A model generated the notes under the pieces. That model searched no databases. It was not told the origin of the DNA and saw nothing but the letters and a program-made list of their open reading frames with translations. A stretch of DNA of 64,000 bases, taken from NCBI GenBank assembly GCA_035388785.1, contig DAOOQN010000003.1, positions 16,497 to 80,496 of the forward strand, written 5' to 3'. The stretch is from a bacterium (GTDB taxonomy: Bacteria; Patescibacteriota; Patescibacteriia; UBA2196). The translations under genes and the position numbers were made by a program. Positions 1 to 59,281 of the stretch are shown one piece after another. The first letter of the stretch is position 1; every line of letters starts with the position of its first letter.

Positions 1-62
1 TCAGACTGGCTACAAATTGTCTGACTCAAGCAGGAATACAAACGAGCCTGCTGTAAATCATC

Positions 63-1355
63 TCACCGCTCATGATACTCGTCAGCGACGAGATGTTTGA
101 ACCCTCGTGGACTTTGGTCCAAAGGATTCGTTTCGCCACCACCGCGATCCCACGCGGCTTCGATCACGTTGCCGTCTCGATCCCAGTCGAGGTTGAGGTG
201 AAACACCTCTTCCTCACCATCCACCATTTCCACGGCATGGAAATGATGAACGTCAAAAGAAATTGGTTCTCTCCGGAGCCATTGGATAAGCTCCCGAAAA
301 GTTTTTTTGCTTGTCTTCGTCACGTCGAATCTGTGACGTAAAACAAACAAATTATTTGGGATTGGGTCGCCGGGCTGTAGAAAAATTTCCCGTACCCCGC
401 CGTCAACAATAATTTTGACGGCCTTTTTTTGCTTCAGAGTCTCCTCGATAAAAGGAAGAGCCTCTTCGGCAAAACCAAATCCCATCCAGCGGCCGGGGAT
501 GGAGAATCCACCGCCGTGGACATATGGGTCATCACCAAGCCAGTTACCGGAGGTATGGTAGGAAACCTCCACCACCGGCTGATCCACCCATGTTTTTTTC
601 CCGTCAGAGAAGAAGGGGAATTGCGCTTGGATGGCTTCGGCCCATGTAAACGGCAATAAGTCGCCGTTTTCATTTTTTTTGGCCGCCTCGTTCGGATTTA
701 GCATCTGGCCATCAGCCAAGATGTTTTGTCCAAAACGATAGGCTTGAATTTGAAACGTTTCACCCCCGAAATGCAAGAAAGGGTGTACCGACACCAGGTC
801 GTACAGCTTTGATTTTATCTGTACATATCTGGTCAAACCACCCGGTGTGCCGATTTCACCCAAGGCATCACCAAACCTGACAATCTCTTCACAGAGATTC
901 ACCAGGTTTCCGGAGTATTTTCCGGTCACCCCATATTCCCCTTTGAGGTCAAACTTCCCCTCAAGGGTTTCGGGGTTGAACTCGCCGTTTACCACCCTGA
1001 TTCGCAGGTGGTACTCTCCCGAAGAACTGAAGTGGGGCGAGCCACCCTCTTCAGTTTCGGAAAAGCCAGGGATGCAAATATTATATGCAATCCCGACTTC
1101 CCCGACATTATCAGGGCAAAAATCCCTGATTTCGGAGAAAAAGATCTGGGTTGCGAGCCATGTCCGCTCGCTCCCCGGCAAAACAACATCAACTGCGAGA
1201 GATCTCATTTGCTCCCTCAGTTGACTTTCATGCCAGCCCCCATAGGGCTCGACATGAAACAGCTGACCGGCAACGAGCGATTTGCTCGAGTTGCCGAATG
1301 CCCCTTGGTAAAAGGTACCAAAGGGGTCTTTGGTGAAAATTAAATACGCTTGCAT
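63..1355 (-). CDS. hypothetical protein, 430 aa, last gene of the high-GC island; no motif recognised by eye
   Basis: Long minus-strand ORF in the high-GC block. RBS-like GGGAGGAAAT precedes the ATG at 1355. Two hairpins lie downstream of the stop (1-60). Same strand as the MoxR/vWA genes. Confidence 0.45.
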   Translation of the reverse strand: MQAYLIFTKDPFGTFYQGAFGNSSKSLVAGQLFHVEPYGGWHESQLREQMRSLAVDVVLPGSERTWLATQIFFSEIRDFCPDNVGEVGIAYNICIPGFSETEEGGSPHFSSSGEYHLRIRVVNGEFNPETLEGKFDLKGEYGVTGKYSGNLVNLCEEIVRFGDALGEIGTPGGLTRYVQIKSKLYDLVSVHPFLHFGGETFQIQAYRFGQNILADGQMLNPNEAAKKNENGDLLPFTWAEAIQAQFPFFSDGKKTWVDQPVVEVSYHTSGNWLGDDPYVHGGGFSIPGRWMGFGFAEEALPFIEETLKQKKAVKIIVDGGVREIFLQPGDPIPNNLFVLRHRFDVTKTSKKTFRELIQWLRREPISFDVHHFHAVEMVDGEEEVFHLNLDWDRDGNVIEAAWDRGGGETNPLDQSPRGFKHLVADEYHER

Positions 1356-1424
1356 ATTTCCTCCCTCTGCCTCTCGGCAAAAAGATTTTTCCGGAATCCG
1401 TCCGGTACGGTCCGCTTAGCGGGA

Positions 1425-1504
1425 TTTTTTAGTTGGTTCTTTTAATTCCTTTGAATTAGAGATCCTGAAATAAATTCAGGATGACAAACAAACTAAAAGA
1501 ACCA
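1425..1504. repeat. nested inverted repeat: 15-bp arms TAGTTGGTTCTTTTA / TAAAAGAACCAACTA enclosing the 8-bp-arm palindrome ATCCTGAA-ATAAA-TTCAGGAT
   Basis: Read directly from the sequence. It sits in the AT-rich spacer upstream of the 430-aa ORF. The motif TTTAAAGAACTATTTTT nearby (1508-1527) recurs at 2239-2262. Confidence 0.6.
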
Positions 1505-1755
1505 ACTAAAGATTTTTAAAGAACTATTTTTTTATTTTATTTATGCATTTTTAAAAACGCATTTTTTATTTTTTTATTCTTCTAAACCTTCCATAAAAAA
1601 AATATGAAAAGCTTGGAAAAATGGTCAGGAGTTTGTGAAAACTCCCGACCGTAGATTTTTTGAGGCGCTTTTGTGACAGGTGCGCCTCGGTGGGATTTAC
1701 CTGTCGGATAATAGATCGTCAGTTTTAACAGCAAACTGACGTGCATTAGACCATT

Positions 1756-2103
1756 CTACCGGTCCCATTCCGACGGTGGGGTGGTAATCTCCCGCCCGTC
1801 GCATTCGTAGCCGTAGAAACCCTCTTCAGTCGGCCCGAAGAAGTTGGAAACGGCCACCTGAAAGTGCCCCGGTCGGGCTGACCGTGGCTCCTGGGCAAAC
1901 AGGGGCTTCTCCCGCCGGACAAACTTCGTCCAGCGCGTGTAGCCCCTCGCCTCCCAGGCCGTGGGTTTTGAATCGCACAGACACACACCTGCAGCGTGGT
2001 CTGTTCCCCACCAGACCTCGTCGGCGGCATTAAGCGCCGCAACTTCCGCCTCATCCATCACGGAGAGGCGGTACAAGGTCCCAACATAGGTCCCTATTCT
2101 CAT
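1756..2103 (-). CDS. hypothetical protein, 115 aa
   Basis: Minus-strand ORF with RBS AAGGAGAAAC 6 nt before the ATG at 2103. A hairpin GTCAGTTT-N7-AAACTGAC (1721-1743) lies just past its stop. High-GC coding composition. Confidence 0.4.
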   Translation of the reverse strand: MRIGTYVGTLYRLSVMDEAEVAALNAADEVWWGTDHAAGVCLCDSKPTAWEARGYTRWTKFVRREKPLFAQEPRSARPGHFQVAVSNFFGPTEEGFYGYECDGREITTPPSEWDR

Positions 2104-2382
2104 TTTGTTTCTCCTTGTTTTGCCTTGGCAGAATTGCCTCAGCTAATCCAGTATATCCTGGAGGAGAATCTGGTGACGATATTTTGCCACCGCTTCTAAA
2201 TTTTAATTTAATAAATATTTCAAAAGTGGTGACAAAAAATAAATTTTAAAAGAACTATTTTTGTTTTCTTTCATCCGCCTACTGCTGTATTGCGCACCGG
2301 AGAGTTGGTTCACAAATCAAGCTATGAGCGAGTGAAAGAAAGGAAATCAACAAAAAGCGCAGAGTTGATTTCCTTTCCAGTT

Positions 2383-2859
2383 TTACCAGGGGCACCGGTC
2401 AGTGACAGTGCCGTCGATGACCGGTTCGCATCCCCAGATCAGGGCATGGTTCGCCCAAAAATCTGTGGACGCGGGGGTAGCGTTCCGATCCCATGGTTCA
2501 GGTTCGGACAGCTCACCCACGAAGGCGGTGATCAGGATATACCCGCCGACATCATCCGCCCTCTTGAGGATGACGACGACGCTCTGGCACTCTTCCGGTT
2601 GGCGATTGATCACGAACCGGGAGAGGCCAAAGCGCTTTGGCCTCTGGGCAAAGATGATCTGGTCGCCAGGCCCGGTGACGACACAGATCGAGTGACCGAC
2701 GGGGTGGCCAAACTCGACTACCTCCTTGAGAAAGTTGCGCTTGCCAGAGCTGATTTTTCCCAGTGCCTCCGGCAAAACCGCGACAACATCCTCGTGGAGG
2801 TGGGAGTTATGCCTGTCGTAGACAGGCTCGCCACTCCCTAAACTTCCAACCCGATCCAT
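2383..2859 (-). CDS. hypothetical protein, ~158 aa (start taken at the internal Met preceded by GGAGACCAGG)
   Basis: Minus-strand ORF 2383..2919. The internal ATG at 2859 has a strong RBS and carries the shared leader CAAAAACTAACCAGAAAGGAGA. An opposite-strand ORF 2290..2841 overlaps it. Strand chosen by RBS and operon polarity. Confidence 0.35.
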   Translation of the reverse strand: MDRVGSLGSGEPVYDRHNSHLHEDVVAVLPEALGKISSGKRNFLKEVVEFGHPVGHSICVVTGPGDQIIFAQRPKRFGLSRFVINRQPEECQSVVVILKRADDVGGYILITAFVGELSEPEPWDRNATPASTDFWANHALIWGCEPVIDGTVTDRCPW

Positions 2860-2919
2860 CCTGGTCTCCTTTCTGGTTAGTTTTTGTTTTGGTTTATTTA
2901 AATTCCTCTCTAAAATCAT

Positions 2920-3694
2920 CTAATAAAATATTAAATAATTTTAGAGAACAGAGAACGTGAGAGTTGCATTAACACGTTCTCTTAAAGTAAAGCGCGGGGG
3001 ATCCCGCATGGTACACCTCCTTTTTTCTTGCCACCCGCCTAGATATCAGCCAATTATTTGGCTGATACCCAGAACTCCCGGGACCAAGCCGAGAAAAGAC
3101 AACAAGGTGGATTTGACCCTCGCCTGCACCGAAAAGGGAAATTGCAGGAACAGCCCCAGACCACAATTCAAAGGGCTGTCGTTGACTTCTTTCCGCCAGT
3201 GCCAGACAGATATTGCGAAGTCAAAAGATATCTGTCTGGCGCACGGTGGGATGTGAATTGACCAGGACATTGAGCGCCGCTCCCAAACGGTCTTTTTTTA
3301 TCTCAATGTCGTCTGAATAGCGATTAGTAATTTCGGCTCGTCCGTACCAGAACCGAATATAATCCACTATCCTTGGCGTTTTATTAGCGCGCCACCGCCA
3401 GCTTTTTCGGAGCAACCCGTCTGCCCATCCCAAAGGATTTTTGTCGCCTCGGCAGCTAGCGCCACAAGCTTATGACCGCAAAAAAATACAGCAGAGCGGT
3501 ACTTGTGGTTGCGCAGGTTTTTGGCTATGCCACCATGGGTTTTATAGCCAAGGCGGTGATTTATTCATTACACACTCTCCTTTCTGGTTGGTGTTTGTTT
3601 TTATATTTATTTCTTAAAAACCATCAATTAAAAATTAATAGCTTTTAAGATGAGACGAGCAAGTAATGTGCATTACCGCTCATCTCAAATAGTG
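2920..3694 (-). pseudogene. probable degraded ORF between the vWA gene and the 158-aa gene: intact leader/RBS, an 8-codon mini-ORF (MNKSPPWL, 3542..3568), then several out-of-frame ORF fragments (70 aa and 74 aa)
   Basis: The leader AAACACCAACCAGAAAGGAGAG (3577-3600, minus strand) duplicates the leader of the 2859 start. Reading frames break repeatedly. Hairpins at 3042-3068, 3201-3238 and 3522-3548. Confidence 0.3.
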
Positions 3695-5101
3695 CTAGAA
3701 CTTCTCGACCCCGACTCCGCCCGTGCTTTGGGCGAATTTGACGAGTCCGGGATTGGCGACTTCCATCGCGAATCCATGAACTCGAGTGCCAGGGATTTCC
3801 GACGCCTTCAATCCGTTGATCGAGGTGTCCTCGTCGGTCAGGACTACGATCTCGGGGCGATACAGAGCTTCGCCAGCCTTGATCTTTTCCTCGATCATCT
3901 TATGCGCAGACCGGACAGCCGCGGCAATATCTGTGCCGCCACCAGAAAAGTTTTTACTCGTGAACTTTTTGATGAGCTCGCGAGCTTCTTCTGACGTGGC
4001 GGCATGATCTGCTTTGGTCAGGTCGGTGTCAAAGACACTCAGCCAGACTTCAGCATCACCGGATATTACTGCCTTGAGGCGGTTCATCACTACCCCAGAG
4101 GCCTTCCAGTGTTTTTTGCCGTTCATTGATCCAGAGCCGTCGAGCAGGATGAAAATCGCCTGCTTTTTTTCATTCCTCGTGACGCGCTCACGGACCGGCA
4201 ACTGTCCCGTTACGGCCTTATAAAGAAAAAAGGACGGATTTTCCTGCCGCAATGCCCAGGCCGTTTTGGGCACGCGTTGGAGCTCACCGAGGTGGCGGAT
4301 GGGTCTTTGGTGGACCTCATCACCAGTCGGGTCAGGTTCGATCTCACGACGCTTTCTGACCTGCATCTTGGTGAATTGATCCAACTTGCGGGAGATATCC
4401 AGCATGACCCGCTTATCTGACCCGGCGACCAGGTCTTCGGCAATTTTCAGGCTTTTCAGTCCTTGGTTGCCTTGACGCTGGCCGTCTTGCTCCTTTACCA
4501 CGTCATGGTTTTCTCCTTGCGGGTCGAGCATGTCCAGCTCTTCCTCGCTCAAGGAGTCCACCATTTCCATGGTGTCCTGGAGCTCTTCCGCCACTCCCTC
4601 GGGGCGGTCGGTCTCGGAAAAAATCGGCAAGGGCTCACCACCCTCGCCGCCACCCTGCCCACCTTGCTTTTTTGACAAAAGCTTTAGCAGGCTCATGGTT
4701 TGCTCTAAGGGGGAGCCGCCCGGAAACTGGTTGAGGTCAATCGCCTGCAAAAAATCGCAGACGTTTTGGTGATACCTCAATTGCTCCCGGGTTCTGCCTT
4801 CGACCGCCTCGAAGCGGTTCTTGGTCGCGAACTCTTTCTTCTTCCCCTGGCTGTCGCGGCCGACATATTTCCAGTAGCCAGAGGAGTCAGCGGCGGGCAA
4901 ACTTTCTTCCACCTTTTGCCGCACCACCTGTTGATAGTGCGAAGGGGGATTGATCGTCCCACCCGCTGCCAAGTTGCAGAGGTCGGCCACTAGATCTCTA
5001 GAGAAGCCGCTCAAGCCGACCTTTTGAGCTGCTTCTTTCATCTCCTCCCCAGAAGGAGGAATGTACGTCGCCGGGGGCGACGTGCGGAATGTGTAATGCA
5101 T
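3695..5101 (-). CDS. von Willebrand factor A domain protein (MIDAS motif), ~468 aa; C-terminal vWA domain preceded by a long acidic low-complexity N-terminal region
   Basis: MIDAS DxSxS in ILLDGSGSM, the conserved Thr in GGGTDIAAAV and the distal Asp in IVVLTDEDT. Start chosen at the Met preceded by AAAAAAGGAGG (ATG at 5101). A hairpin plus AT tract follows the stop (3620-3690). Confidence 0.75.
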   Translation of the reverse strand: MHYTFRTSPPATYIPPSGEEMKEAAQKVGLSGFSRDLVADLCNLAAGGTINPPSHYQQVVRQKVEESLPAADSSGYWKYVGRDSQGKKKEFATKNRFEAVEGRTREQLRYHQNVCDFLQAIDLNQFPGGSPLEQTMSLLKLLSKKQGGQGGGEGGEPLPIFSETDRPEGVAEELQDTMEMVDSLSEEELDMLDPQGENHDVVKEQDGQRQGNQGLKSLKIAEDLVAGSDKRVMLDISRKLDQFTKMQVRKRREIEPDPTGDEVHQRPIRHLGELQRVPKTAWALRQENPSFFLYKAVTGQLPVRERVTRNEKKQAIFILLDGSGSMNGKKHWKASGVVMNRLKAVISGDAEVWLSVFDTDLTKADHAATSEEARELIKKFTSKNFSGGGTDIAAAVRSAHKMIEEKIKAGEALYRPEIVVLTDEDTSINGLKASEIPGTRVHGFAMEVANPGLVKFAQSTGGVGVEKF

Positions 5102-5123
5102 TGTCGCCTCCTTTTTTGGGGGG

Positions 5124-6209
5124 TTAAATTCTTGTCGCATTCAAGGCCGCAGTTTGGGCCTCGGTGATCTTTTGGGCCACCGATTCCCGCAACTGCTTCC
5201 GACGCTCGGACAGGCCATCGGTGATCTTCAAACCGGCTACCCTGTCCTGTAACCCGGTCAGCCGTTTTGCCATCTGCAGGAGCTTGATTGGCGACGAAGA
5301 AATCTCGTCCCACTCCTGCATCAGGCCACGCATTTCGGCCTCGGCCTCGGCCAGCCGTTTTTCAGCGGCGGCGCGCTCATAAGCGGCCTCGAGTTCCTGA
5401 CGGATATTCTCCGCCAGTCCTTCAAGACCATCAATGAACTTCAGGTCGATCAGGTCTTCCTTCTCGACCTTCTGTCCACCGCGCAGAGCGGCCGCGGATT
5501 TCACGACCGACAAAGCATACACCGCCGACCGCGGGGAAATCGGCTGATCACCCTCGCCCGCCTTGGCCATTATCTCGGCCAGGACTCCCATGGAGCCGTT
5601 CAGGTCTGCCCCAGACAAAAACGGGGTGACCTTATTAAACAGGGCCAGATAGTCCTTAGCCGAATATGACTCCCACTTTATATTGAGCTGAAGTGGAAAT
5701 CTTTCGATCAGGGCTTTGGAGGCGGGTCCCAGATCCTCAATTTCTTGGGGATCTTTGTTGGTGATCGCGATGATCACTTTCGTTTTCATCGCGAAGACCT
5801 GTGACCCTTTCCGCAGTTTGCGGGCGGTCAGGGTATCCTTTAGAGCGAGGAGAACCGACGCTGGCGCGTCGAACATTTCCTCGAAAACCGCGAACGGTTT
5901 TGCGAGGAAACTGTTCTCCGGGTGGTACAGGAGGACTTTGTCGCGGTCCAGGGCCGCAAAATCCAAACCACCCCAGAGAGTAGCCTCATCCATTCCCTCA
6001 CCAAAACTCTGGACAAACATATCCAGCTCCTCGGCGACGACGGCCAGGGCCGCTTGAACCATTTCGCTCTTGCCGTGACCCCCGGGTCCCCAGAGGAGCA
6101 CGTTCTTACCCGACTCGATGGCGAGCGCGAGGACCCGGGCAATTTCCTCGCACCTGACGAACCGCTCGGACAGAGCGGTCAATATTTTTTCATACAAATT
6201 GGTGGCCAT
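5124..6209 (-). CDS. AAA+ ATPase of the MoxR/RavA-like family, 361 aa, with a C-terminal coiled-coil
   Basis: Walker A LLWGPGGHGKSE. Walker B-like hydrophobic stretch DKVLLYHPE. RBS AAAGGAGG before the ATG at 6209. Immediately upstream of and on the same strand as the vWA gene (the classic MoxR-vWA pairing). Confidence 0.65.
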   Translation of the reverse strand: MATNLYEKILTALSERFVRCEEIARVLALAIESGKNVLLWGPGGHGKSEMVQAALAVVAEELDMFVQSFGEGMDEATLWGGLDFAALDRDKVLLYHPENSFLAKPFAVFEEMFDAPASVLLALKDTLTARKLRKGSQVFAMKTKVIIAITNKDPQEIEDLGPASKALIERFPLQLNIKWESYSAKDYLALFNKVTPFLSGADLNGSMGVLAEIMAKAGEGDQPISPRSAVYALSVVKSAAALRGGQKVEKEDLIDLKFIDGLEGLAENIRQELEAAYERAAAEKRLAEAEAEMRGLMQEWDEISSSPIKLLQMAKRLTGLQDRVAGLKITDGLSERRKQLRESVAQKITEAQTAALNATRI

Positions 6210-6737
6210 TGCTGGCCTCCTTTCTTTTCTTTCTTTGAGTTTGAGCGCTTGGCCTCGACTTCATTAGGAGCCGATCCAACCCTGCACTCCTCGCAGTCTT
6301 GTTGGTCGCGAATCGCCCAGGAATTATTTGCGCCTATCCACAAATTTCCTGATTTTCTTTCCAAGCCAGATTAGGTGGCTGTTATTAAATTCCTCTATTA
6401 AGGTTTCGAAGATGTTTTTCTCTCTCCTCGAAACCGGTTAGAGGAATTTATTTTATTTTTTCTCCTAATTTAATATTCAGTTTTCAACGAACGCGCTTTT
6501 CTCTTTCTCTATAAAATTCCCCTTTGACGGGGACAAAATTTCCTATTCAATTTGTTAAGAAATTTTAGAAAGATATAGCGAGAAAGTTGTTTATTTAGCT
6601 ACAAGCATGGCAGCTAAATAAACAAATATTCCAGCTGTATCACATAGGCATTTTAATTTTAACTTCTCTCCTCTTTTGGTTTTTAGGCCAAAGGCCTATT
6701 TAGAAAATTTCCAATTTCAAATTTCAAATTTCTAAAC

Positions 6738-7290: not shown

Positions 7291-7630
7291 AATAAAATAA
7301 TTAATAGGGTAGTTAACAAACTAGCACTATTTTAGGCCTTTACGGCGCCTAATGCCGTCTCTCTTCATTTACACCCCGGACTCCTTAGACCAAGGTTGCT
7401 GTTGACCGCGTCTTCATTCGCTTTCACCAGCATTTATATAATTAGATTTTTAAAGATTTGTGGTTACTTTTAATCTTTGCCTTTTAGCTTACACACAAAT
7501 AATAACATAACCAGTTGAATATGTCAATAGCCGTCGTCTTGAATTTCTATATAATCTAGACAATTGGCTGATATAAAAATATATTTAGGCTATAATTATT
7601 ATTAAATATCAATCTTTTTGACGAAAGTGT

Positions 7631-7660
7631 TTGACAGATTACCAAAAAACATGCTATAAT
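7631..7660 (+). promoter_or_regulatory. consensus sigma70-type promoter: TTGACA, 18-bp spacer, TATAAT
   Basis: TTGACA at 7631-7636 and TATAAT at 7655-7660, about 66 nt upstream of the ATG at 7727. Confidence 0.55.
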
Positions 7661-7726: not shown

Positions 7727-8533
7727 ATGACTGAATCTACTTTACTCACTCAAATCGGCCTGTCTGAAAAAGAGGCTGAAATCTATCAAATTCTCTTAAA
7801 AATTGGCAAAGCTCCTGCCAACAAGGTTTTACCACTAACCCAGCTCAAACGCACCACTGTTTATAGTGTTTTAGAAGAATTAGCCCAGAAAGAAATAGTG
7901 GAAAAGGATGAATCTAGCGCCATTATCGAGTTTCGCGCCAAACACCCGTATGCTTTAAAGGAGTATTTGGAAACACGTGTATCTCAAATTAAAGAATCTG
8001 AAGGAAAATTAGACGCTGCACTCCCCAATTTAATTACTTTATATAGTGAGGCGCAAGAGAGACCGGGTGTGCGTTATTTGGAAAGTATTGGTGGTTTTAA
8101 AAAGGTTTATGAAGATATTTTGCAGACAAAAAAAGAGCTTGTTATTTTTACCTCCGCCCACGACCAAACAAGGGCTGATATGAGTGTAGTAATAAATGAA
8201 AATATTAATAAACAAAAAAAGCTTGGAATTAATACCAAAGCCATTTGGATGCTTGATGAAAAAATTACAAAAGCAACAATTGATGAATTGAAATTAAATA
8301 ATGTGGCTATCAGACTGACAAAAAATCCTTTATTTGCTTTGCCAGCGCAAATCATTATTTACGGCCAAAAAATAGCTATAACTTCGTTAAAAAATGAGAT
8401 TGTTACAACGTTAATTGAAAATGAAAATATTGCTACTAGTTTAAAAAATATTTTTGATTTTGTCTGGAGTGTTTTAGAAACTGAATCAGCTGAGCTTTAT
8501 TCCACACTGCCCACATCTTTACCAACTAAATAA
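7727..8533 (+). CDS. TrmB-family transcriptional regulator (N-terminal winged HTH), 268 aa
   Basis: N-terminal segment LSEKEAEIYQILLKIGKAPANKV is typical of TrmB-type HTH. Consensus promoter upstream. Confidence 0.55.
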   Translation: MTESTLLTQIGLSEKEAEIYQILLKIGKAPANKVLPLTQLKRTTVYSVLEELAQKEIVEKDESSAIIEFRAKHPYALKEYLETRVSQIKESEGKLDAALPNLITLYSEAQERPGVRYLESIGGFKKVYEDILQTKKELVIFTSAHDQTRADMSVVINENINKQKKLGINTKAIWMLDEKITKATIDELKLNNVAIRLTKNPLFALPAQIIIYGQKIAITSLKNEIVTTLIENENIATSLKNIFDFVWSVLETESAELYSTLPTSLPTK

Positions 8534-10944
8534 ATATTTAACAGCTGTGCTAATTCAGCAAAAAGATTTTCTTCAGCATAGGACTGGTCAAATGACCTGA
8601 CATTATGAGAACCAATTTCTGTGGTAGCACAAAGCAAATTACCCAGCCTATCTCCAGACCGCACCATTTTTTCATCTTGATATTTATTTCGCCCAAGATC
8701 TAGAGAAATACGAGCTGATTCTTCTCGAGTATCACGGTCAATGCGAATGGAAAATTCGCTTTTTTGTTTTTTTGATTTTTGACCTGCATAAGCGACATCT
8801 TGAGCGAAAAAATTTTTCATTTTTTTATCTTCTTTTTTTATTCCATCACCTTCAAAAGCAAGAGTAAACGCCACACGGGCTTCACCGCGAGCACTGGCTT
8901 GGGGCCGAATAAAATAACGCAAGCGATACTGTTTGGTCGTCTTTTTGTCCTCCACTAAATATTGGTAATTATATTCTTGTTCATCTCCTACATTTTGTTC
9001 CTGTTGAAAATTGTAAATATTTTGGCTATTAAAATCAGAGATAATGGAAAGAAAAAGTCGCATCGCTTGTAAAGAAGTAGTTACATCTTCAAAATTAAAT
9101 TCTGTATTCTTTTCGTTTAATAGATGGTGAGTACTCAAGAAAAGATCAGCACTGCGCCGACGAATGGCTTCTTCTAGTTGCACTGGAAATTGGCGCATTT
9201 CCACGCGCTGGCTTTGTTCAAATTTTAATGCCATAGATCCACTCATTCTTTGGATTTCATCCAAAGTCAAATTATATTCACTAAATAAAGCCTGGGCATC
9301 TTTCTTGGACAACCGGTCAGCTATATCTAAAATTATACTACCGTTGCTAAAACCATTTTCTAAAGCCAAAAAAGTCCTAATACCTTGTTCGCTAAAATCT
9401 GAAGCAAATTTTTTTATCCGATTTTTTTCTCCCAGACTTGCCCTTTTATAATAAACCACAAACCAGCCTTGTTCGTGACGAGAAAGATTGGTGAGATCGA
9501 CACCGGTTTCTTTAAAAGCTATATCAATAATTTCATACAAAGATGACTTATATTCGGCTAAAATTTTTTCTCTTTCCGTTCGTTCGGCCGGTGTCTCGTC
9601 AAAACGAGAAATAAAAAGATGTTCATAAGTGAAATCCAACACTTTAGCTTTGGCTTTTTTTTCTGGTTCTGATAGACCTTCCAATTTAAAAAATTTAATC
9701 AGTTCTCTTTCTTGATTAAAAATACCAATTTCACCATCACAAGAGATCCGGCGTGCATGATAAGCCGGGTTGTTTAACGTTTCCAGATCATACCTCTTTT
9801 CTAAATATTTTACCCCTTGTTCTGAAATTCCAATTCGACCAAATTCTAGACGATACAAAACCGCTGAAGCATCCCGTCGAGTAAACTCATTAGTTGATTT
9901 TAATAAGCCTAGTAGCCCACCAACTGCTCGTTCTGGTGAAGCTTGATTAATGATATCACTAATTTGTCTTAAAAAAAGACTAGCATTTTCGTCGTTAACT
10001 ATAAAATTAATCAAATTACCAATCACTTTCTCATCTTTTGTACCAGTAATAACATCCAGCAAATCACGCTTACTCATTGATCCAAAATCAAAATCGATTG
10101 TATCAGAATCAAAATTAATGTTTGTCTTTTCTGTGTTTTGAGCTAAATATCTACGTGTTTCTTCAAACTCCGGAAGATATTGTTCGTCTGTTTCTATTTC
10201 TTTACCATCCGTATCATCAACTGACAGTAACATCTGATAATTTTCTTCATCCAAAATATCTTCCTTTTTTTCTTGTGTTCGTCGTTGATCTAAACTTTTG
10301 GGTTTTAAAGAATAAAAAGCAATAATTTTTTTATCCCAATTAGCTAACATTAAAGAAATAAATTCAGCCGCCCGAGGATTTTTGGTTTTTAATATAGCCC
10401 TTGCAATCTTATAATAATAGGAAGAAACATTGTTTTCATCATTATCTGACAAATCTATCGAGGTTAAAACAGCGTTCGAAATTTTATCTTCTGTAAAAAG
10501 AGATAAAAGATAAAAAGCATTTTCTTCTTTTGTTGCAATTTTTTCCAAACATTTGTCAAAAAAAACACTGGCAAATCCATCCAATTCAAAACTATCATCT
10601 TGTGTAAATTTATAATCAATTATAAAGTCATTGAGTTGAATATAAAAATCAGTGGTTAAGTTATTTTTTTCTTGCTCAATTTTTTCCAGTCGCTCAAAAG
10701 CCATCATCCATTGGTTGTTTTTTAACAGATTAGTAATTTCCAAAAAAACCAAATTTTCTTCCTCCATTTTTTTCTCTTCATCCTCTTGGTTTGTTGACAT
10801 TTCTGTCGTCACAACTGGATCATCATAATCAATAGAAGTACCTTTAACCAAAGCAGCTATCTTTCTAGATTTTTGAGGTCTAGTTTCAGCAAACCGATCT
10901 TGATGTTGTTTAAGCAATGACGCAAATCTTTCTCGACTGCTCAT
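8497..10944 (-). CDS. large hypothetical protein, 815 aa, acidic; has a HEAT/armadillo-like repeat stretch but no catalytic motif recognised
   Basis: Uninterrupted 2.4-kb ORF with host-like codon composition. Segment VIGNLINFIVND...AVGGLLGLLKSTNEFTRRDASAVLYRL resembles HEAT repeats. Converges on the TrmB gene with a 37-nt 3-prime overlap. Confidence 0.6.
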   Translation of the reverse strand: MSSRERFASLLKQHQDRFAETRPQKSRKIAALVKGTSIDYDDPVVTTEMSTNQEDEEKKMEEENLVFLEITNLLKNNQWMMAFERLEKIEQEKNNLTTDFYIQLNDFIIDYKFTQDDSFELDGFASVFFDKCLEKIATKEENAFYLLSLFTEDKISNAVLTSIDLSDNDENNVSSYYYKIARAILKTKNPRAAEFISLMLANWDKKIIAFYSLKPKSLDQRRTQEKKEDILDEENYQMLLSVDDTDGKEIETDEQYLPEFEETRRYLAQNTEKTNINFDSDTIDFDFGSMSKRDLLDVITGTKDEKVIGNLINFIVNDENASLFLRQISDIINQASPERAVGGLLGLLKSTNEFTRRDASAVLYRLEFGRIGISEQGVKYLEKRYDLETLNNPAYHARRISCDGEIGIFNQERELIKFFKLEGLSEPEKKAKAKVLDFTYEHLFISRFDETPAERTEREKILAEYKSSLYEIIDIAFKETGVDLTNLSRHEQGWFVVYYKRASLGEKNRIKKFASDFSEQGIRTFLALENGFSNGSIILDIADRLSKKDAQALFSEYNLTLDEIQRMSGSMALKFEQSQRVEMRQFPVQLEEAIRRRSADLFLSTHHLLNEKNTEFNFEDVTTSLQAMRLFLSIISDFNSQNIYNFQQEQNVGDEQEYNYQYLVEDKKTTKQYRLRYFIRPQASARGEARVAFTLAFEGDGIKKEDKKMKNFFAQDVAYAGQKSKKQKSEFSIRIDRDTREESARISLDLGRNKYQDEKMVRSGDRLGNLLCATTEIGSHNVRSFDQSYAEENLFAELAQLLNIYLVGKDVGSVE

Positions 10945-11633: not shown

Positions 11634-11855
11634 TTATTGTTTTATAAAGGGCATCAAACCCATGACCCGCGCACGTTTAATAGCCCGTGCCACCTGACGT
11701 TGATGTTTGGCACATAGACCGGTGCTGCGAGCTGGCACAATACGTGCGTAATGTGAAAAAAATCTTTGTAAATTTTGTGTGTCCTGCCAATCGACTGCTA
11801 CATCACCATTAGCACAATAATAACAATGTTTTTCAATTTGGTTGTTGTTGATCAT
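11634..11855 (-). CDS. rpsR: 30S ribosomal protein S18
   Basis: CYYC...TGLCAKHQRQVARAIKRARVMGL is the S18 signature. Part of the S6-SSB-S18 arrangement. Confidence 0.9.
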   Translation of the reverse strand: MINNNQIEKHCYYCANGDVAVDWQDTQNLQRFFSHYARIVPARSTGLCAKHQRQVARAIKRARVMGLMPFIKQ

Positions 11856-11869
11856 AAAATGTTAGATAT

Positions 11870-12400
<531 letters not shown>

Positions 12401-18860: not shown

Positions 18861-20390
18861 CTATTCAATTTTTGTACGGTATTGCAAAGCCTCAGCCACG
18901 TGATTGATTTGAATATTTTCTACGCCGGCCAAATCGGCAATGGTGCGTGCGGTTTTTAAAACCCGATGATAACCGCGGGCGGAAAGATTGAGTTGTTGCA
19001 CAGCGTTTTTTAGTAATTCTTTAGTTGCTTCATTGACAACACAAAAACTTTTTATCTCTCTGGGACCCATTTCAGCATTAGTACAAATTGCCAAATCAAA
19101 AAAACGATTGGACTGAATTTTGCGCGCCGCTTGCACACGCTGCCGAATAGCAGCCGAACTTTCAGTCGGAAGGTTGGAAGTTAATTTTTCAAAATTTACC
19201 CGCGGCACTTCAATATGTAAATCAATACGATCGAGTAGTGGACCAGAAATTCTTTTTTGATATTTTAAAATCTGCCCGACACTACAGGTACATTTTTTAT
19301 CCGGATCAGAATAATAACCACACGGACAAGGGTTTTGCGAGGCCACCAAAGTAAAGCGGGCAGGAAATGTCACCGTGCCCTGCGCGCGCGAAACCGTGAC
19401 TACCCCATCTTCTAAAGGCTGACGTAAATTTTCCAAAACCTGGCGAGTAAATTCTGGGAATTCATCCAAAAAAAGCACGCCTCTGTGAGCTAAACTGATT
19501 TCACCTGGCCGCGGAAAAGTTCCCCCACCCACCAAGGCTACACCGGAAGAGGTGTGGTGTGGACTACGAAAAGGCCGCTCCAATATTAAAGGTTTTTCTT
19601 TTGTTAATTTACCAGCGACTGAATAAATTTTGGTGACTTCCAAAATTTCATCGTGTGTCAAGGGTGGTAAAATGGAAGCCATAGCGCGGGCTAATAAAGT
19701 TTTACCTGAACCCGGTGGTCCAGATAATAAAACGTTATGGCCAGCTGCGGCTGCAATTTCTAAAGCCCTCTTGGCCTGTTCCTGACCTTTAACAAAAGAC
19801 ATATCCACCCCACCAGCAACCTTATTTTGAATTTCTAATGCTATGGGTTTGGCTTGGTAAGGAGTGATGTTTTTTTCTCCCCTCAAATGTAAAATTAATT
19901 CGGCTAAAGATTTGACCGGCATAATTTCTACCTCAGCCACAAAAGAAGCTTCCTCAACATTGGCCTCCGGTACAAAAATTCTTTGAATACCTTTTTCTTT
20001 GGCTAGAATGGCAATCGGCAATACACCACTAACCCCGCGCAAATGTCCATCCAAAGAAAGCTCACCTAAAAAAATAGCATTTTTATCTTCAGATAAAATT
20101 CGTACCCCACCGGCTGCAACTAATAAACTTAAAGCAATTGGTAAATCATATGAAGGACCCTCCTTGCGCACATCAGCTGGCGCTAGATTGACTACAATTT
20201 TGGCCCGCGCAAAATCCAAACCAGAATTTTTTATGGCGGACCAGACACGTTCTTTTGATTCTTGCACAGCCACATCTGGCAAGCCAACGATAATAAACAA
20301 ACCACCCTGACCACCACCAATATCAGCTTCTACCTCAATTAATTGCGAATCCAACCCAATGGTAGTGGCAGAAAAAATTTTTGCCGACAT
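18861..20390 (-). CDS. comM: YifB/ComM-family Mg-chelatase-like AAA+ ATPase
   Basis: N-terminal Lon-like domain, Walker A LLSGPPGSGKTLLA, C-terminal ChlI-like domain. 509 aa. Confidence 0.85.
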   Translation of the reverse strand: MSAKIFSATTIGLDSQLIEVEADIGGGQGGLFIIVGLPDVAVQESKERVWSAIKNSGLDFARAKIVVNLAPADVRKEGPSYDLPIALSLLVAAGGVRILSEDKNAIFLGELSLDGHLRGVSGVLPIAILAKEKGIQRIFVPEANVEEASFVAEVEIMPVKSLAELILHLRGEKNITPYQAKPIALEIQNKVAGGVDMSFVKGQEQAKRALEIAAAAGHNVLLSGPPGSGKTLLARAMASILPPLTHDEILEVTKIYSVAGKLTKEKPLILERPFRSPHHTSSGVALVGGGTFPRPGEISLAHRGVLFLDEFPEFTRQVLENLRQPLEDGVVTVSRAQGTVTFPARFTLVASQNPCPCGYYSDPDKKCTCSVGQILKYQKRISGPLLDRIDLHIEVPRVNFEKLTSNLPTESSAAIRQRVQAARKIQSNRFFDLAICTNAEMGPREIKSFCVVNEATKELLKNAVQQLNLSARGYHRVLKTARTIADLAGVENIQINHVAEALQYRTKIE

Positions 20391-22675: not shown

Positions 22676-24988
22676 TCAATCCTGCTCCAAGTCTGGCAAA
22701 CGGGCTGTCTTTTTCCGCGCCCTTAAAAACAACAGTATACCGATTAATAAAATAGTGACCAATGTGGCAATAACATAGTCTTTCCAAGCAGTATTCTTTG
22801 GTGTTGTAACGGCACTGGCTCTCAAAACACGTTCAATTTTTAGATCCAACATGGATCGTGGCAAGAGGCGCAACTCTGCATTACTGGGCGATAAAATACC
22901 CACAACGGTTACTTGGTCGCCGATTTTTAAATTTAATTCATCAAATTTAATGTCGGTAGTATTTTTAATATAAACGCGCACCTCACCCATGTTATCATCT
23001 AACCAAAAATTGCCACCCTGTATGGCTGTGACTTCACCTTTAATTTCAACCAAAGAACCAACCCATTCTTCTATCTCGCTTAAATCAATAACATGTGGTT
23101 GGGTAATTTCTTGTTCACCTAAAATTTTAATATCACTCCTGCTGCTAATTTTAATTCTTTTTTCACCATAAGCCTGACTTATTTCACCCTTGACCTCTAT
23201 TTGATCGCCCACACTGAGTGCAGGAAAATCTTTACTGTACATATAAATTTGTATACCAGAACCAGCCACATAAAAAATGTTGGCACCCAAAACCCCGGGT
23301 TCAACCGCCACTACGCCCTGAGTACTAACTTTTTCACCCACAGCAAGTTCTTTGGCATCTTCTAGACTAACCGTTTTATATAAAACGTACTTTTGAGTAG
23401 CTGCTTTTTTGGGTGTGACTGTTTTTTTGTCTTCAGCGACCGGACTATTAACTGCGGCTTTTGCAATAACTTCTTGGCTGTACTGATCTTGGCCGGCTAA
23501 ATTATCAACTACGGCTAAGGTAATTTTATTTTTACCAGCTTGTAAAAATTTTATTTTGATAGTCGGTACGCTCAAAACAAAATTTTTTCCAACATCATTA
23601 CCAGCCATGACTTCTTGGCTAAAACTCCAAATGTATTTTTTTATTTGACCATCTTTATCATAGCTTTCACCAGCGTCAAATACTACTTCTTTGTTCACCA
23701 AAAAGTCTTCACTGGACGCTTCAAAATAAGCCAGTGGGTTAATATTTTCTGGCGGGCACTGGTTGCTTTCGCTGGGTGTAATGGTGTTTAACCAAACAAA
23801 TTGTCCGCGACAAAGATTGTAACTTTTACCTTCTTCTGTTTTCTTATAGCTAACCACCGCCACTTCTTTTTGATTATAATCAAAAAGTTTAACAGCTTCC
23901 CCACCATAATTGTTTAAGCTGATTTTATTACTCTCCAAAATTACCATTAAAAAACTACGGCCTTTGATTTTTGTATTTTTAAAAATTAGCTGTCCTAAAT
24001 TATCTTTTAAAATCCAGTTGTCCAATACAATTTCAGCAGTGGTGGTATTGTAGATTTCCAACCACTCACAGCTGTCGTCCAAACCAAAAGGATCCGGCAT
24101 AATTTCAGTTATAAAAATTTTATTTTTATACTCTGAATCATTACTTTCTTTCTGCGTTTGATTGTTTTGTTGATTATTATTGTTTTGGTTAATACTTGAG
24201 TTAGATTGACTTCCGCCACCACCACCAGTGGTTGGAGTTGGAGTTGGAACTGTAATTAAATTACTCGCATCTTTGGTTGGCGTGGTCGTCCACATATATT
24301 CACCAACTGTATTTCTAGCCCAAGCATAATCGTCTTTGGCGTCATCGCTATAATTAATTTGTTGTAGCAAATCACCATCAGGCTGAAAAAGTTTAACCAG
24401 ATCACCACCTGTGTTATTAAGAGAGATGTTGGTCATGTTTTTATCAAGAATAAAATAGCCACCCGCATTAATAATGGTGGTGGACGCCGTGCTAGTGGTG
24501 ATTGTAAAAATTTTATTACTAGCATCAGTAATCTGCCAGCCCACCAAATCAACATCCTCGGCACTGGGATTGAATAACTCAATCCACTCAAAATCATCAC
24601 TATCTAAAGGGTTGGGTAAAATTTCGTTAATAATCACAGCATCCGAATAAGTAAGGGGGGTTGTAGTGGCCGCATCATCATCATTATTATTATTTCCGAC
24701 ACTGACAGTTATAAAATCTTTTAGGTCATCAAAGGTTACCTGGCCGATACCAGGCACACTCATTAAGTCCTCAATTTTTTGAAAAACACCGTTTTGAACC
24801 CGATAAGTAATTATATCCTCGGCTTTAACTAAACCTATACCTGGCAAAGAATCCAACTCTTCTAGAGTAGCTGTATTAAGGTTAATTTTCTCGGCTGCAT
24901 TAACATAATTTAAAAAACAAAAAATCGCAAAAATTGCGACTAAAAAAACAATAAAAAAACAGACATGACCCGAAATTTTTTTGAGCAT
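22676..24988 (-). CDS. ComEA-like helix-hairpin-helix protein fused to two lamin-tail domains, an Ig/PKD-like segment and an OB-fold; signal/TM at the N-terminus and TM plus basic tail at the C-terminus; 770 aa
   Basis: NLNTATLEELDSLPGIGLVKAEDII...VPGIGQVTFDDL is a ComEA-type tandem HhH. INEILPNP...FEWIELFNP and ITEIMPDP...EWLEIYNT are lamin-tail signatures. Thr/Pro/Gly/Asn-rich linkers. Confidence 0.7.
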   Translation of the reverse strand: MLKKISGHVCFFIVFLVAIFAIFCFLNYVNAAEKINLNTATLEELDSLPGIGLVKAEDIITYRVQNGVFQKIEDLMSVPGIGQVTFDDLKDFITVSVGNNNNDDDAATTTPLTYSDAVIINEILPNPLDSDDFEWIELFNPSAEDVDLVGWQITDASNKIFTITTSTASTTIINAGGYFILDKNMTNISLNNTGGDLVKLFQPDGDLLQQINYSDDAKDDYAWARNTVGEYMWTTTPTKDASNLITVPTPTPTTGGGGGSQSNSSINQNNNNQQNNQTQKESNDSEYKNKIFITEIMPDPFGLDDSCEWLEIYNTTTAEIVLDNWILKDNLGQLIFKNTKIKGRSFLMVILESNKISLNNYGGEAVKLFDYNQKEVAVVSYKKTEEGKSYNLCRGQFVWLNTITPSESNQCPPENINPLAYFEASSEDFLVNKEVVFDAGESYDKDGQIKKYIWSFSQEVMAGNDVGKNFVLSVPTIKIKFLQAGKNKITLAVVDNLAGQDQYSQEVIAKAAVNSPVAEDKKTVTPKKAATQKYVLYKTVSLEDAKELAVGEKVSTQGVVAVEPGVLGANIFYVAGSGIQIYMYSKDFPALSVGDQIEVKGEISQAYGEKRIKISSRSDIKILGEQEITQPHVIDLSEIEEWVGSLVEIKGEVTAIQGGNFWLDDNMGEVRVYIKNTTDIKFDELNLKIGDQVTVVGILSPSNAELRLLPRSMLDLKIERVLRASAVTTPKNTAWKDYVIATLVTILLIGILLFLRARKKTARLPDLEQD

Positions 24989-32450: not shown

Positions 32451-33821
32451 ATGACTAACGAACAACTTTGGCAAGCTATTTTGGGTGAATTAGAATTAAC
32501 TTTAAGTAAAGCTAATTTTACAACCTGGTTTAAAAGTACTTTTATTATTTCACAAGAAGCTAATTGTATTATTGTGGGTGTACCGAATGGTTTTACTAAA
32601 ACTTGGTTGGAAAATAAATATCAAAATGAGATTATTACAGCTTTAAAACACATTACTAATAACACCATTAACCAAGTTTTTTATAAAGTTGAAATAAATA
32701 ATAAGCCAACAAATTTAGCTAATCTAAAGGAAAAAATAAATAATATTAATCATAATTCAAATACAGAAGAGAAGGAAGAAAATTATCCCAAAAATCAATT
32801 TGGTTTAAATCCAAAATACACTTTTGATAAATTTATTGTGGGAAAGAATAATGAATTAGCCCACGCAGCCGCCAAAGCAGTGTCCAAGGCTCCTGGTAAT
32901 GCTTATAACCCACTATATATCTATGGGCAAGCTGGTTTGGGTAAAACACACCTCTTACAAGCTATAGGGCATGAAATACTTAATAATAAACCAAATACAA
33001 AATTACTTTATTTAACATGTGAAAAGTTTACTAACGAGTTTATTAACACACTTAGAACAAATCGAGCAAATGAATTTCAGCAGAAATATCGCAATATTGA
33101 TGTTTTAATTATTGATGATATACAATTTATAGCCGGTAAAGAACAAACTCAAGAACAATTTTTTCACACTTTTAATGATCTTTATCAAAAAGATAAACAA
33201 TTAATTATTTCTTCAGATAGACCCCCTAAAGCTATTCAAAATTTAGAACAAAGATTACAATCACGCTTTGAGTGGGGGATGACGGCTGACATTTCAGCAC
33301 CTGATTATGAAACTCGGGTGGCTATTTTAGAGCAAAAAGCTATAGATAAAAATTTTAGTTTAGAAAAAAATATTATAAATTATCTAGCAGAAAATATACA
33401 GAGTAATATTAGAGAATTAGAGGGTGCTTTAAATCATTTATATGCTCGTTTTCAATTAAATAACCATAAATTAACATTAGACGAAGTAAAAAGTATTTTA
33501 CAAAGCATTAATACTATTATTCCAAAAAGTGCTCTTTCTAATAAATCTATTATTCAAACTGTATCTGAATTTTTTAACATTTCCACAGCTGAAATAGTTG
33601 GTACATCGCGTAAAAAAGAATTAGTCGTACCTCGACAAATTGCCATGTATTTAATGCGTGAGGAATTAGAAACTTCATTTATTAAAATTGGACATGAATT
33701 GGGTGACCGTGATCACACCACAGCTATACATGCTTATACTAAAATCAAAGAAGAACTTAATAATGATGGAAAAATTAAACAAAACATCTTACTTATTAAA
33801 CAAAAACTATATAATAAATAG
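32451..33821 (+). CDS. dnaA: chromosomal replication initiator DnaA
   Basis: Walker A GQAGLGKTHLLQAIG, sensor and box VII, C-terminal DNA-binding domain. 456 aa. Confidence 0.95.
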   Translation: MTNEQLWQAILGELELTLSKANFTTWFKSTFIISQEANCIIVGVPNGFTKTWLENKYQNEIITALKHITNNTINQVFYKVEINNKPTNLANLKEKINNINHNSNTEEKEENYPKNQFGLNPKYTFDKFIVGKNNELAHAAAKAVSKAPGNAYNPLYIYGQAGLGKTHLLQAIGHEILNNKPNTKLLYLTCEKFTNEFINTLRTNRANEFQQKYRNIDVLIIDDIQFIAGKEQTQEQFFHTFNDLYQKDKQLIISSDRPPKAIQNLEQRLQSRFEWGMTADISAPDYETRVAILEQKAIDKNFSLEKNIINYLAENIQSNIRELEGALNHLYARFQLNNHKLTLDEVKSILQSINTIIPKSALSNKSIIQTVSEFFNISTAEIVGTSRKKELVVPRQIAMYLMREELETSFIKIGHELGDRDHTTAIHAYTKIKEELNNDGKIKQNILLIKQKLYNK

Positions 33822-34079
33822 TGTATAAATAGGTGTATAAAAAAGCATAAATTAGCATTTTATCAACTTAAAACAAAAAAATAAAAAGAATTATTTTATA
33901 TTCACACATTATTTTAAATATAAATCTATAGTATCCACCTTAGGTGTTAGTTAAAATATGGTCTCTAGATGAAATAAAATCAATCTGTGGGGCAAAGTAC
34001 ATTTTTATACACTTTTACACCCTCATTACTATGTATTATTAAAGTATTTAAATATTCTAATATTATAATATAAAAAAAT
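33822..34079. other. candidate oriC segment 2 (dnaA-dnaN spacer): inverted DnaA-box-like repeats AGTGTATAA and GGTGTATAAAA versus TTTTTATACAC, plus GTATCCACC
   Basis: Boxes with 8/9 matches to TTATNCACA / TGTGNATAA at about 33822-33840 and 33993-34004. Very AT-rich. Confidence 0.4.
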
Positions 34080-59077: not shown

Positions 59078-59208
59078 AAATTTAATTCTAGCATTGCAAA
59101 GTTTGTTTGACAAATTAGAAAATATTAAATTATAGCCATATTTTAAGGATATTTTCTTGTTTACAAAATAGTAAAACCTGTTATAATTTGAATAGATTTT
59201 TGTTTTAA

Positions 59209-59281
59209 GCGCCTGTAGCTCAGCGGTTAGAGCGCCGCCCTTATAAGACGGATGTCGATGGTTCGATTCCATCCAGGCGCA
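59209..59281 (+). tRNA. tRNA-Ile (anticodon UAU)
   Basis: Manual cloverleaf with standard numbering gives the loop CTTATAA. Acceptor GCGCCTG/CAGGCGC. One C:A mismatch in the anticodon stem. Confidence 0.65.

Follow-up and report, generated by a model that had tools for sequence, protein, structure and literature searches.

Genes for a MoxR-class AAA+ ATPase and for a protein with a von Willebrand factor A (vWA) domain lie side by side in several described systems. In RavA–ViaA, CoxD–CoxE, NorQ–NorD, CbbQ–CbbO, and CobS–CobT, a hexamer-type MoxR ATPase is encoded just upstream of a vWA protein with an intact metal ion-dependent adhesion site (MIDAS), and in the beta-propeller-type ternary conflict systems the pair is accompanied by a third component (Kaur, Burroughs, Iyer, and Aravind, 2020, PMC7159879; Pfam PF20030, bpMoxR). 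Here, we describe a MoxR–vWA pair encoded in a GC-rich island at positions 1–6350 of a 64,000-nt stretch of the Patescibacteria contig DAOOQN010000003.1 (hereafter, the window). The pair belongs to a recurrent arrangement that also includes a small protein of 158 amino acids (p158) and a structured RNA upstream of moxR, and it appears to fall outside all named MoxR–vWA systems.

The ATPase gene (5124–6209, minus strand) encodes 361 amino acids, about 100 of which form a coiled-coil-like C-terminal tail. Its best Pfam match is bpMoxR (53.1 bits against a cut-off of 27; E = 2.9e-14), and AAA_5 is matched as well (31.5 bits against 22). The Walker A sequence GPGGHGKS is invariant among 30 sequences, as are Glu110/Glu111, Asp114, Thr150/Asn151, Arg170, Arg227, and Arg243, which represent Walker B, sensor, and arginine positions. 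With Walker A and B, sensor 1, and the arginines intact and the Pfam scores above the gathering thresholds, the protein is a MoxR-class AAA+ ATPase. At least 435 relatives were found, the best 120 of which are 63–75% identical, and those that bear a name are assigned to Patescibacteria lineages (Kaiserbacteria, Doudnabacteria, Kuenenbacteria, and others).

The adjacent vWA gene (3695–5101, minus strand; longest open reading frame [ORF] from 5140) probably encodes 468 amino acids and matches VWA_CoxE (E = 4.5e-9) and VWA_2 (E = 1.2e-7), both over the cut-off. Its MIDAS is intact (DGSGSM, GGGTD, LTDED), with residues D.SGSM, GG.T, and TD at least 90% conserved across 26 sequences; this metal site and the adjacency to the ATPase gene mark the protein as a vWA/MIDAS partner of MoxR. 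Its N-terminal region of about 310 residues, the fold of which was not recognised, is as conserved as the vWA domain in the same 26 sequences, and the protein ends about 40 residues past that domain. An initial annotation, made from the sequence without database searches, had recognised coupled genes for a MoxR-like ATPase and a MIDAS-containing vWA protein, and the profile searches and motifs confirm that both are intact. The overlap of the two genes by a few codons, which it also reported, probably arose because the longest ORF was taken: a strong ribosome-binding site (RBS; AAGGAGG) lies 7 nt upstream of the ATG at 5101, and this start leaves a gap of 22 nt from the moxR stop.

The island resembles the beta-propeller ternary systems in the best Pfam match of its ATPase, in the adjacency of the two genes, in the long N-terminal region of its vWA protein, and in its variable neighbours and horizontal exchange, which are typical of conflict systems. 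However, it has neither a TPR or beta-propeller third component nor a beta-propeller on the vWA protein, and Pfam scans of its ORFs gave no match to WD40, TPR, or propeller families; its partners are the 158-amino-acid protein and the structured RNA. VMAP-C, inactive STAND (iSTAND), and FtsH were found neither in the Pfam scans of all island ORFs nor in the recorded neighbourhoods, and the scans gave no effector domain joined to the vWA protein. The named chaperone pairs share the gene pair itself with the island, together with weak matches to VWA_CoxE, ViaA, RavA, and a CobS-like PHROG. Unlike those pairs, the module is not accompanied by a gene for a client enzyme in any of the roughly 45 neighbourhoods; its neighbours are TrmB, an 815-amino-acid protein, EF-P, RecA, and FtsK. 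NCBIfam equivalog models, including those for metal-cofactor and maturation pairs, score 21–24 bits against cut-offs of 500–780 (ViaA, 23.9 against 500), and searches of PDB sequences returned only RavA for the ATPase, weakly (E = 1e-4), and no match for the vWA protein.

As in the ribonucleoproteins of Ro60 (TROVE plus vWA) and Y RNA, with their RNA-repair contexts, a vWA/MIDAS gene lies beside a conserved structured RNA. However, no TROVE domain was detected in the island vWA protein, the RNA matches no Y RNA or other Rfam family, and it lies directly before an RBS and looks cis-regulatory. Since no client enzyme, VMAP, iSTAND, FtsH, propeller, or PADLOC family was found, equivalog scores are below cut-off, and the RavA match is weak, the island does not appear to be a member of any named MoxR–vWA system. 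Neither of the two classes offered by the initial annotation, a chaperone pair or a ternary conflict system, is matched in its described form.

The p158 partner and the recurrent module

The p158 gene (2383–2859, minus strand; phrog_23674) lies within a longest ORF of 178 amino acids (2383–2919), and homologues start at its Met21. The 119 homologues are about 155–160 amino acids long, with His20, Gly55, Thr62, Asp66, Arg73, Arg81, Arg86, Lys99, Glu121, Trp123, Asp124, and Trp135 invariant. p158 accompanies MoxR–vWA in most loci, in genomes and metagenomes alike. Two other island proteins, p430 and p115 (430 and 115 amino acids), are restricted to two lineages and one lineage, respectively. p158 is therefore, on the evidence of gene co-occurrence, the conserved third partner. 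Of the uncharacterised ORFs among which the earlier proposal placed a client or effector, the 158-amino-acid ORF thus proves to be the conserved partner, and the other two do not. In most loci, p158 lies upstream of the RNA and moxR, whereas in the window and in its closest relative, the Kuenenbacteria locus L006, it lies downstream of the vWA gene; it appears to have been relocated in this genome.

Fold matches of p158 are mostly to RNase toxins, with weak likeness to the RelE/ParE and CdiA-CT (BECR-fold) toxins, which suggests that p158 is a putative RNase-toxin-like, RNA-acting protein. Searches of p158 against PDB sequences and against BFVD gave no match. Homologues in jumbo phages sit inside tRNA gene clusters (Cronobacter phage GAP32, 275687–276160, L097; Pseudomonas phage Astolliot, L098), and that of Astolliot adjoins an RNase H-like gene and is 4 kb from a DUF2828/DUF7788 protein labelled RNA-binding protein in PHROGs. 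The fold matches and this context hint at a link to RNA biology. The genes beside the GAP32 homologue were considered as MoxR or vWA candidates and rejected, being neither.

Two invariant peptides, searched against 185,579 species genomes, identified 64 loci, of which about 25 are of the Patescibacteria type (45–74% identity) and the remainder are distant Pirellulaceae paralogue pairs (about 40%). The Pirellulaceae loci (L033–L068) have two tandem MoxR paralogues followed by vWA, at host GC, an architecture unlike that of the Patescibacteria module. p158, RNA, MoxR, and vWA are syntenic in some 25 loci from genomes and on some 20 contigs from metagenomes. As established by tblastn mapping and ORF clustering, the recurrent order is a protein of 750–1100 amino acids, a TrmB gene on the opposite strand, 1–2.5 kb without long ORFs, p158, MoxR, vWA, variable small ORFs, and host genes. 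The genes downstream of the core vary between loci.

In this order, the large protein and TrmB genes have host GC, whereas p158, MoxR, vWA, and the variable small ORFs are GC-rich. The GC content at third codon positions (GC3) of MoxR is 0.61–0.84 in most loci, where host GC is 0.35–0.54, compared with 0.23–0.47 for the adjacent TrmB and large-protein genes. The main exceptions are L027 and L008; in the latter, MoxR reaches only 0.32, which is still double the 0.15–0.17 of its neighbours. Because the module is GC-rich whatever its host, the compositional anomaly belongs to the module and not to this genome. The initial annotation had regarded the block as horizontally acquired, but it is not private to this chromosome: many lineages of Patescibacteria carry the module at an equivalent position beside TrmB, almost always with a high GC content.

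The moxR leader RNA and the upstream region

Comparison of TrmB–moxR intergenic regions revealed a conserved block just upstream of moxR. In the window, this type-1 leader RNA is about 130 nt long (6237–6365, minus strand; covariance model R1, 116.7 bits, E = 1e-26) and ends 28 nt upstream of the moxR ATG, between the GC transition and moxR, where the initial annotation had overlooked it. An alignment of 18 loci contains four helices with 21 pairs, 16–17 of which show compensatory double changes (for example, UUCGCG/UGCGAG versus UUCCCC/GGGGAG, and GAGU...ACUC versus CCCC...GGGG), and the single strands between the helices are invariant (GGYGAYYC, a CCAACAAGAC loop, and GCGCUCAA). In these loci, 92.9% of cells are paired, compared with 68% in shuffled alignments and 31–56% when the partners are slid, and the covariation score is 0.676 versus 0.237, a value that none of 500 shuffles reaches. 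Helix P1 (CAGGA/UCCUG) is invariant where present and has no covariation support.

The covariance model detects exactly one copy per locus, including one in L027, which was absent from the seed. The association was tested independently by searching 241 million metagenome records for a 23-nt core pattern, which recovered 22 contigs, 21 of them with a full-length match to the model. moxR is directly downstream in 20 of these 21, the other being cut by the contig end, and 96.8% of the RNA cells in this independent set pair. The core pattern has no match in 2.9 million viral contigs, no Rfam 15 family matched the element of the window or of four other loci at E ≤ 1, and literature searches returned no description of the RNA or the operon.

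Across loci, the 3′ end of the RNA is 4–28 nt from the moxR RBS, and the RNA starts soon after the p158 stop where p158 lies upstream. This position gives it a cis-regulatory look and would fit a cis-acting leader; a processed stable RNA is the alternative. The element is a candidate riboswitch or protein-binding leader, and may represent a structured RNA family that is previously undescribed in the literature searched.

In six loci (L016, L019, L021, L024, L029, L031), a type-2 leader, about 150 nt upstream of moxR, replaces type 1. Its layout is GGGGACCCAAAC...GGGCAAGCCCAAUCC...a hairpin with a CAACAAUCG loop...GGAGGUUUG, and only the last hairpin, which shows compensatory changes, is common to both types. 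In the predicted fold of these six sequences, the Shine–Dalgarno sequence is paired. An adjacent p158 gene is missing in five of the six loci.

Upstream of the leader and divergent from the module lies a TrmB-family regulator gene with host GC (7727–8533, plus strand; Pfam TrmB), and a TrmB gene holds this upstream, opposite-strand position in at least 14 genome loci and three metagenome loci. Divergent promoter-like sites are located at 7631–7660 (plus) and 7527–7499 (minus), and TrmB is a candidate transcriptional regulator of the module. The minus-strand site, a near-consensus TTGACA-17-TATTAT, faces the module, and about 250 nt past it is a long hairpin with a T-run (about 7284–7243). The GC-rich core between the two (7330–7440) has no ORF and no Rfam match; the segment 7243–7527 (minus strand), which lies between TrmB and the module, may encode a small RNA. 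The 815-amino-acid protein (8497–10944, minus strand) gave no Pfam, NCBIfam, or PADLOC match; in 11 or more lineages, its counterparts (750–1100 amino acids, host GC) are conserved neighbours of TrmB and the module.

Genes of the bAvd/23S-rRNA-IVP family (123–133 amino acids) occur between TrmB and the module in L006 (4233–4604) and beside recA in L010 (12261–12662). bAvd is an accessory protein family of diversity-generating retroelements (DGRs), and no reverse transcriptase was seen. Elsewhere in the window, ARAGORN predicts a tRNA-Ile with anticodon TAT at 59209–59281 that overlaps the end of an ORF at 58055–59272.

Composition, borders, and exchange of the island

GC content per kilobase is 0.48–0.56 across positions 1–6000 and 0.26–0.43 in the remainder of the window. 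In 200-nt windows, the ORFs are at 0.51–0.63 and the spacers at 0.27–0.40, with a drop from 0.47 to 0.37 between 6200 and 6500, and the overall GC of ORFs within 1–6350 is 0.50–0.62. GC3 is 0.55–0.72 for five island ORFs versus 0.17–0.38 for 14 host ORFs; Pfam-confirmed dnaA (32451–33821) has GC 0.28 and GC3 0.17. The figures first given, 53% versus 23%, are about right. All island ORFs are on the minus strand. dnaA and dnaN (32451–35183) lie in the low-GC chromosome, and GC skew switches near 29–34 kb.

Parent contigs were located by exact-protein look-up. Beyond coordinate 1, GC is elevated for only about 350–450 nt, with one ORF of 74 amino acids, and host-GC genes follow in the order recA, an HTH gene, ftsK, uvrA, uvrC, and secG. 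The island is therefore closed, about 6.7 kb long and bounded by the TrmB-like gene and recA. Contrary to what had been supposed, the window edge removes little of it, and no additional components are located past that edge. A JGI digester contig with both junctions is 100% identical to the window, an NCBI metagenome-assembled genome contig with the same junctions is 98.3% identical over 11.4 kb, and the sister-strain island has the same arrangement and junctions in two further assemblies. Because both junctions recur in independent assemblies (JGI, NCBI, and ENA), the island is not a chimera, and the GC-rich block is real.

A 4.26-kb alignment of the island with L006, which takes in the spacers, shows 87.5% nucleotide identity, whereas the host flanks are 68–70% identical or unalignable. 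Protein identity to L006 is 96% for MoxR (dS, synonymous divergence, 0.45; dN/dS, nonsynonymous-to-synonymous ratio, 0.085), 95% for vWA (dS 0.60; dN/dS 0.057), and 84% for p158 (dS 0.52; dN/dS 0.18), and dN/dS is 0.21 for p430. By contrast, the host proteins TrmB (46%) and EF-P (72%) are saturated at synonymous sites (proportion of synonymous differences, pS, 0.77 in both). The closest TrmB is that of L008 (61%), the MoxR of which is only 73% identical. Given the island dS of 0.45–0.60 beside saturated host genes, and the distant MoxR of L008, the ancestor shared by the island and L006 is much younger than that of the chromosomes, and the island has recently been exchanged with a Kuenenbacteria-like lineage. 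To this extent, the foreign composition and horizontal transfer first proposed are upheld. All tested island genes are under purifying selection (dN/dS 0.06–0.21), which, together with the invariant ATPase and MIDAS residues, argues that the MoxR–vWA system is active.

L001 and its sister strain L002 differ at 186 positions, many spaced by 3 nt, all of which lie within 2341–4934 and 6505–6603; the flanks are identical, and the vWA gene has a dS of 0.25 and a dN/dS of 0.076. The pattern is that of a recombination mosaic. The 18 differences within 6505–6603 are non-coding and lie around a perfect 14-bp hairpin (6587–6625). The strain-variable tract, together with the Avd-like gene in L006, had raised the idea of a DGR, which was rejected: the changes, often 3 nt apart, are transitions in balanced numbers without specificity for A, and there is no reverse transcriptase. 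Over 11 loci, the identities of MoxR and vWA correlate only moderately with TrmB identity (Spearman 0.38 and 0.54), as would be expected if both descent and replacement have contributed.

The host encodes a ComM-like protein (Mg_chelatase family, 509 amino acids; 18861–20390) and a 770-amino-acid protein that combines HHH_3 domains of the ComEA type with Lamin Tail Domain (LTD) domains and an OB fold (22676–24988); these competence proteins make DNA uptake and homologous replacement plausible in this host. Pfam and PHROG scans found no integrase, recombinase, or phage structural gene among the island ORFs. The nearest tRNA is at 14654, so none flanks the island, and a search for att sites at its edges gave only short, chance-level repeats; the island thus lacks the features of an integrase-type island or prophage. 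An imperfect inverted repeat of 17 nt at the island edges (L001, 4985–5001 and 11808–11824) was judged not significant, as were junction segments, roughly 100 nt long, with loose similarity to each other (TTTCACTCGCTC ... GGCGGWTGAAAGAAAA; L001, 9000–9092 after p158 and 11828–11927 at the recA-side end), which may be a trace of the insertion of the p115–p430 segment or may reflect chance.

Three further ORFs are lineage-specific. p430 (63–1355, minus strand) consists of an N-terminal domain (about 1–268) and a C-terminal domain of about 90 amino acids (340–430) that also occurs in stand-alone small proteins. A search of 1.84 billion representative proteins gave 15 hits, and its only full-length homologue, 59% identical, is in L006; it is not the conserved partner of MoxR–vWA. 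Its predicted structure (mean per-residue confidence, pLDDT, 69.5) has no convincing match among known folds and is not a propeller. Relatives of its two domains in L095 (8001–9359), L101 (2464–3231), and L099 (409–1343) are GC-rich (GC3 0.64–0.75), and in L095 and L101 they directly adjoin a divergent TrmB gene with no MoxR–vWA in view. GC-rich cargo of various kinds may therefore settle beside TrmB, as in a general slot. p115 (1756–2103, minus strand; GC 0.62) is a predicted ORF found by tblastn only in L001 and L002. The third (3168–3572, minus strand), earlier described as degraded, is the frameshifted remnant of a 134-amino-acid ORF that is intact in L002; the intact ORF has no Pfam match. 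None of the three matches a family in Pfam, PHROG, PADLOC, or NCBIfam.

The accreted ORFs are separately equipped, each with an AT-rich leader, an RBS, and a terminator hairpin. One leader of 26 nt (repeat family D4) is duplicated at 92% identity before two different ORFs (2865–2890 and 3576–3601, the latter before the 134-amino-acid remnant), and a AAAAATAGTTCTTT(A/T)AAAAT motif is repeated upstream of p430 and p115. These separate signals and the duplicated leader support gene-by-gene assembly, as initially suggested, and the island does look assembled in this way. The AT-rich spacers (GC 0.27–0.40) are co-linear with the L006 island, within the 87.5% nucleotide identity. Since they are conserved with so distant a lineage, they are island sequence rather than host sequence; AT-rich they are, but the description of them as host-like does not hold. 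An integron or cassette origin of these hairpin-bearing spacers was rejected: no attC-like repeated structure is present, and the hairpins are ordinary-looking terminators.

Function and competing explanations

We regard as moderately probable a reading in which the locus is an accessory operon of Patescibacteria (candidate phyla radiation, CPR), consisting of p158, the RNA, MoxR, and vWA beside TrmB, that underwent recent Kuenenbacteria-like replacement and serves as an RNA-acting stress or conflict module. In this genome, recent recombination with a Kuenenbacteria-like allele would have replaced the operon or brought it in, p158 would have shifted behind vWA, and the 134-amino-acid pseudogene, p115, and p430 would have accreted downstream. 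With the vWA protein serving as its MIDAS adaptor, the MoxR hexamer would remodel a client or set it free, and p158, the only conserved candidate, would be that client or effector. The RNA, between p158 and moxR, would probably gate MoxR–vWA translation by binding a ligand or p158 itself, and the leader RNA and the TrmB-like regulator would together control expression. The module would act on RNA under stress or conflict, rather than as a metal-cofactor chaperone. Its apparently patchy occurrence (a few dozen loci among the species genomes, by the invariant peptide patterns) and the variable genes downstream of its core are suggestive of an accessory role.

Several observations weigh against this operon acting as an exchanged RNA-directed module. 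No antitoxin-like partner was seen, and none of the five island proteins matched a PADLOC-DB 2.0 family at E ≤ 0.01. The RNA and p158 are not strictly coupled: p158 was not detected in three loci with the RNA (L013, L027, L030), and L019 has p158 with a different leader. The divergence of MoxR and vWA rises with that of TrmB, and core proteins are 63–75% identical across phyla; both would fit an old, vertically inherited, constrained function as well. In addition, module GC3 exceeds that of even the GC-richest sampled hosts while the AT-rich spacers show no GC enrichment, so that donor composition or biased gene conversion alone is insufficient, and selection on the coding sequence may be needed to explain the GC. 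The constant high GC3 (about 0.6–0.8 in hosts of any GC) is most likely caused by repeated overwriting through homologous exchange among lineages, with selection on the module's own codons as the alternative cause.

The main rival takes these last points at face value and is possible, if rather unlikely: a chaperone, inherited vertically and unconnected with conflict, that serves a complex specific to Patescibacteria, with p158 as cofactor or client, a riboswitch-like leader, and GC content set by gene-level selection. By analogy with Rea1/Midasin, the complex might be a ribonucleoprotein or ribosome-related particle; a metal-dependent protein is another candidate. Cross-phylum conservation, the conserved synteny of TrmB and the 815-amino-acid gene, the positive correlation with TrmB, the low dN/dS, a GC3 that surpasses all sampled hosts and is restricted to coding sequence, and the weak similarities to RavA/ViaA and CobS/CobT all agree with such a chaperone. 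It is harder to reconcile with a module that the peptide patterns place in only a few dozen of 185,579 species genomes, that shows clear recent replacement and mosaicism within a population, and that carries variable adjacent cargo. Moreover, no neighbourhood contains a client enzyme, and the NCBIfam equivalog scores are far under the cut-offs.

The idea from which the analysis started, a private island with the 430-, 115-, or 158-amino-acid ORF as its client or effector and more parts beyond coordinate 1, is now improbable. Foreign composition and horizontal transfer are borne out, and one of its three candidates proves to be the conserved partner, but the module is a widespread, conserved locus, p430 and p115 are confined to two lineages and one, with the partner role of p430 already refuted, and past coordinate 1 only about 400 nt precede recA.

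Similarly doubtful is a phage or mobile-element remnant or cargo beside TrmB, such as a MoxR–vWA chaperone pair for virion assembly, a role that has been described (PMC7824862). p158 does belong to a PHROG and is present in jumbo phages, and MoxR–vWA relatives of 48–54% identity occur on IMG/VR contigs of matching GC, one of them with tail genes. However, the phage p158 genes are not beside MoxR–vWA, tblastn of MoxR against 50,697 GenBank phage records at 1e-10 found nothing, island DNA shows no similarity to GenBank phages or PLSDB plasmids, the RNA core pattern is absent from the 2.9 million viral contigs, and the island lacks an integrase, structural genes, a flanking tRNA, and convincing att repeats.

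We also give little weight to a self-contained, RNA-centred conflict system, in which the RNA would be a cofactor or decoy of p158 and MoxR–vWA would free the p158 RNase on a trigger such as phage infection. In such a system, GC-rich coding sequence would be kept by selection, with the module's own mRNAs being poor substrates for an effector that cuts AU-rich host or phage transcripts. Finally, an assembly or binning chimera joining GC-rich foreign DNA to an AT-rich contig, which the abrupt GC steps and the binning of several homologous contigs to implausible taxa (for example, Gammaproteobacteria and Thermoplasmata) might suggest, is practically dismissed by both junctions in JGI, NCBI, and ENA assemblies, the 98.3% variant included, by the same arrangement in the sister lineage, and by the same host–module junction in more than 15 other lineages.

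The favoured reading of an accessory operon points to three things without description in the literature searched: the p158–RNA–MoxR–vWA operon, the RNA motif, and a GC-rich gene set that is independent of its host. Patescibacteria make up a large share of bacterial diversity, and the roles of most of the genes conserved among them have yet to be assigned; this locus is a recognisable, widely shared operon with a testable architecture of small protein, structured RNA, AAA+ motor, and MIDAS adaptor. The RNA motif, with its strict gene association, occurs in a group that has few known regulatory RNAs. The interpretation of a GC island as a recent foreign import can be wrong in Patescibacteria genomes, and the module is a clean natural case of a GC3 of 0.6–0.8 across hosts of 31–54% GC that bears on how composition is maintained, whether by recurrent replacement through natural transformation, biased conversion, or codon-level selection.

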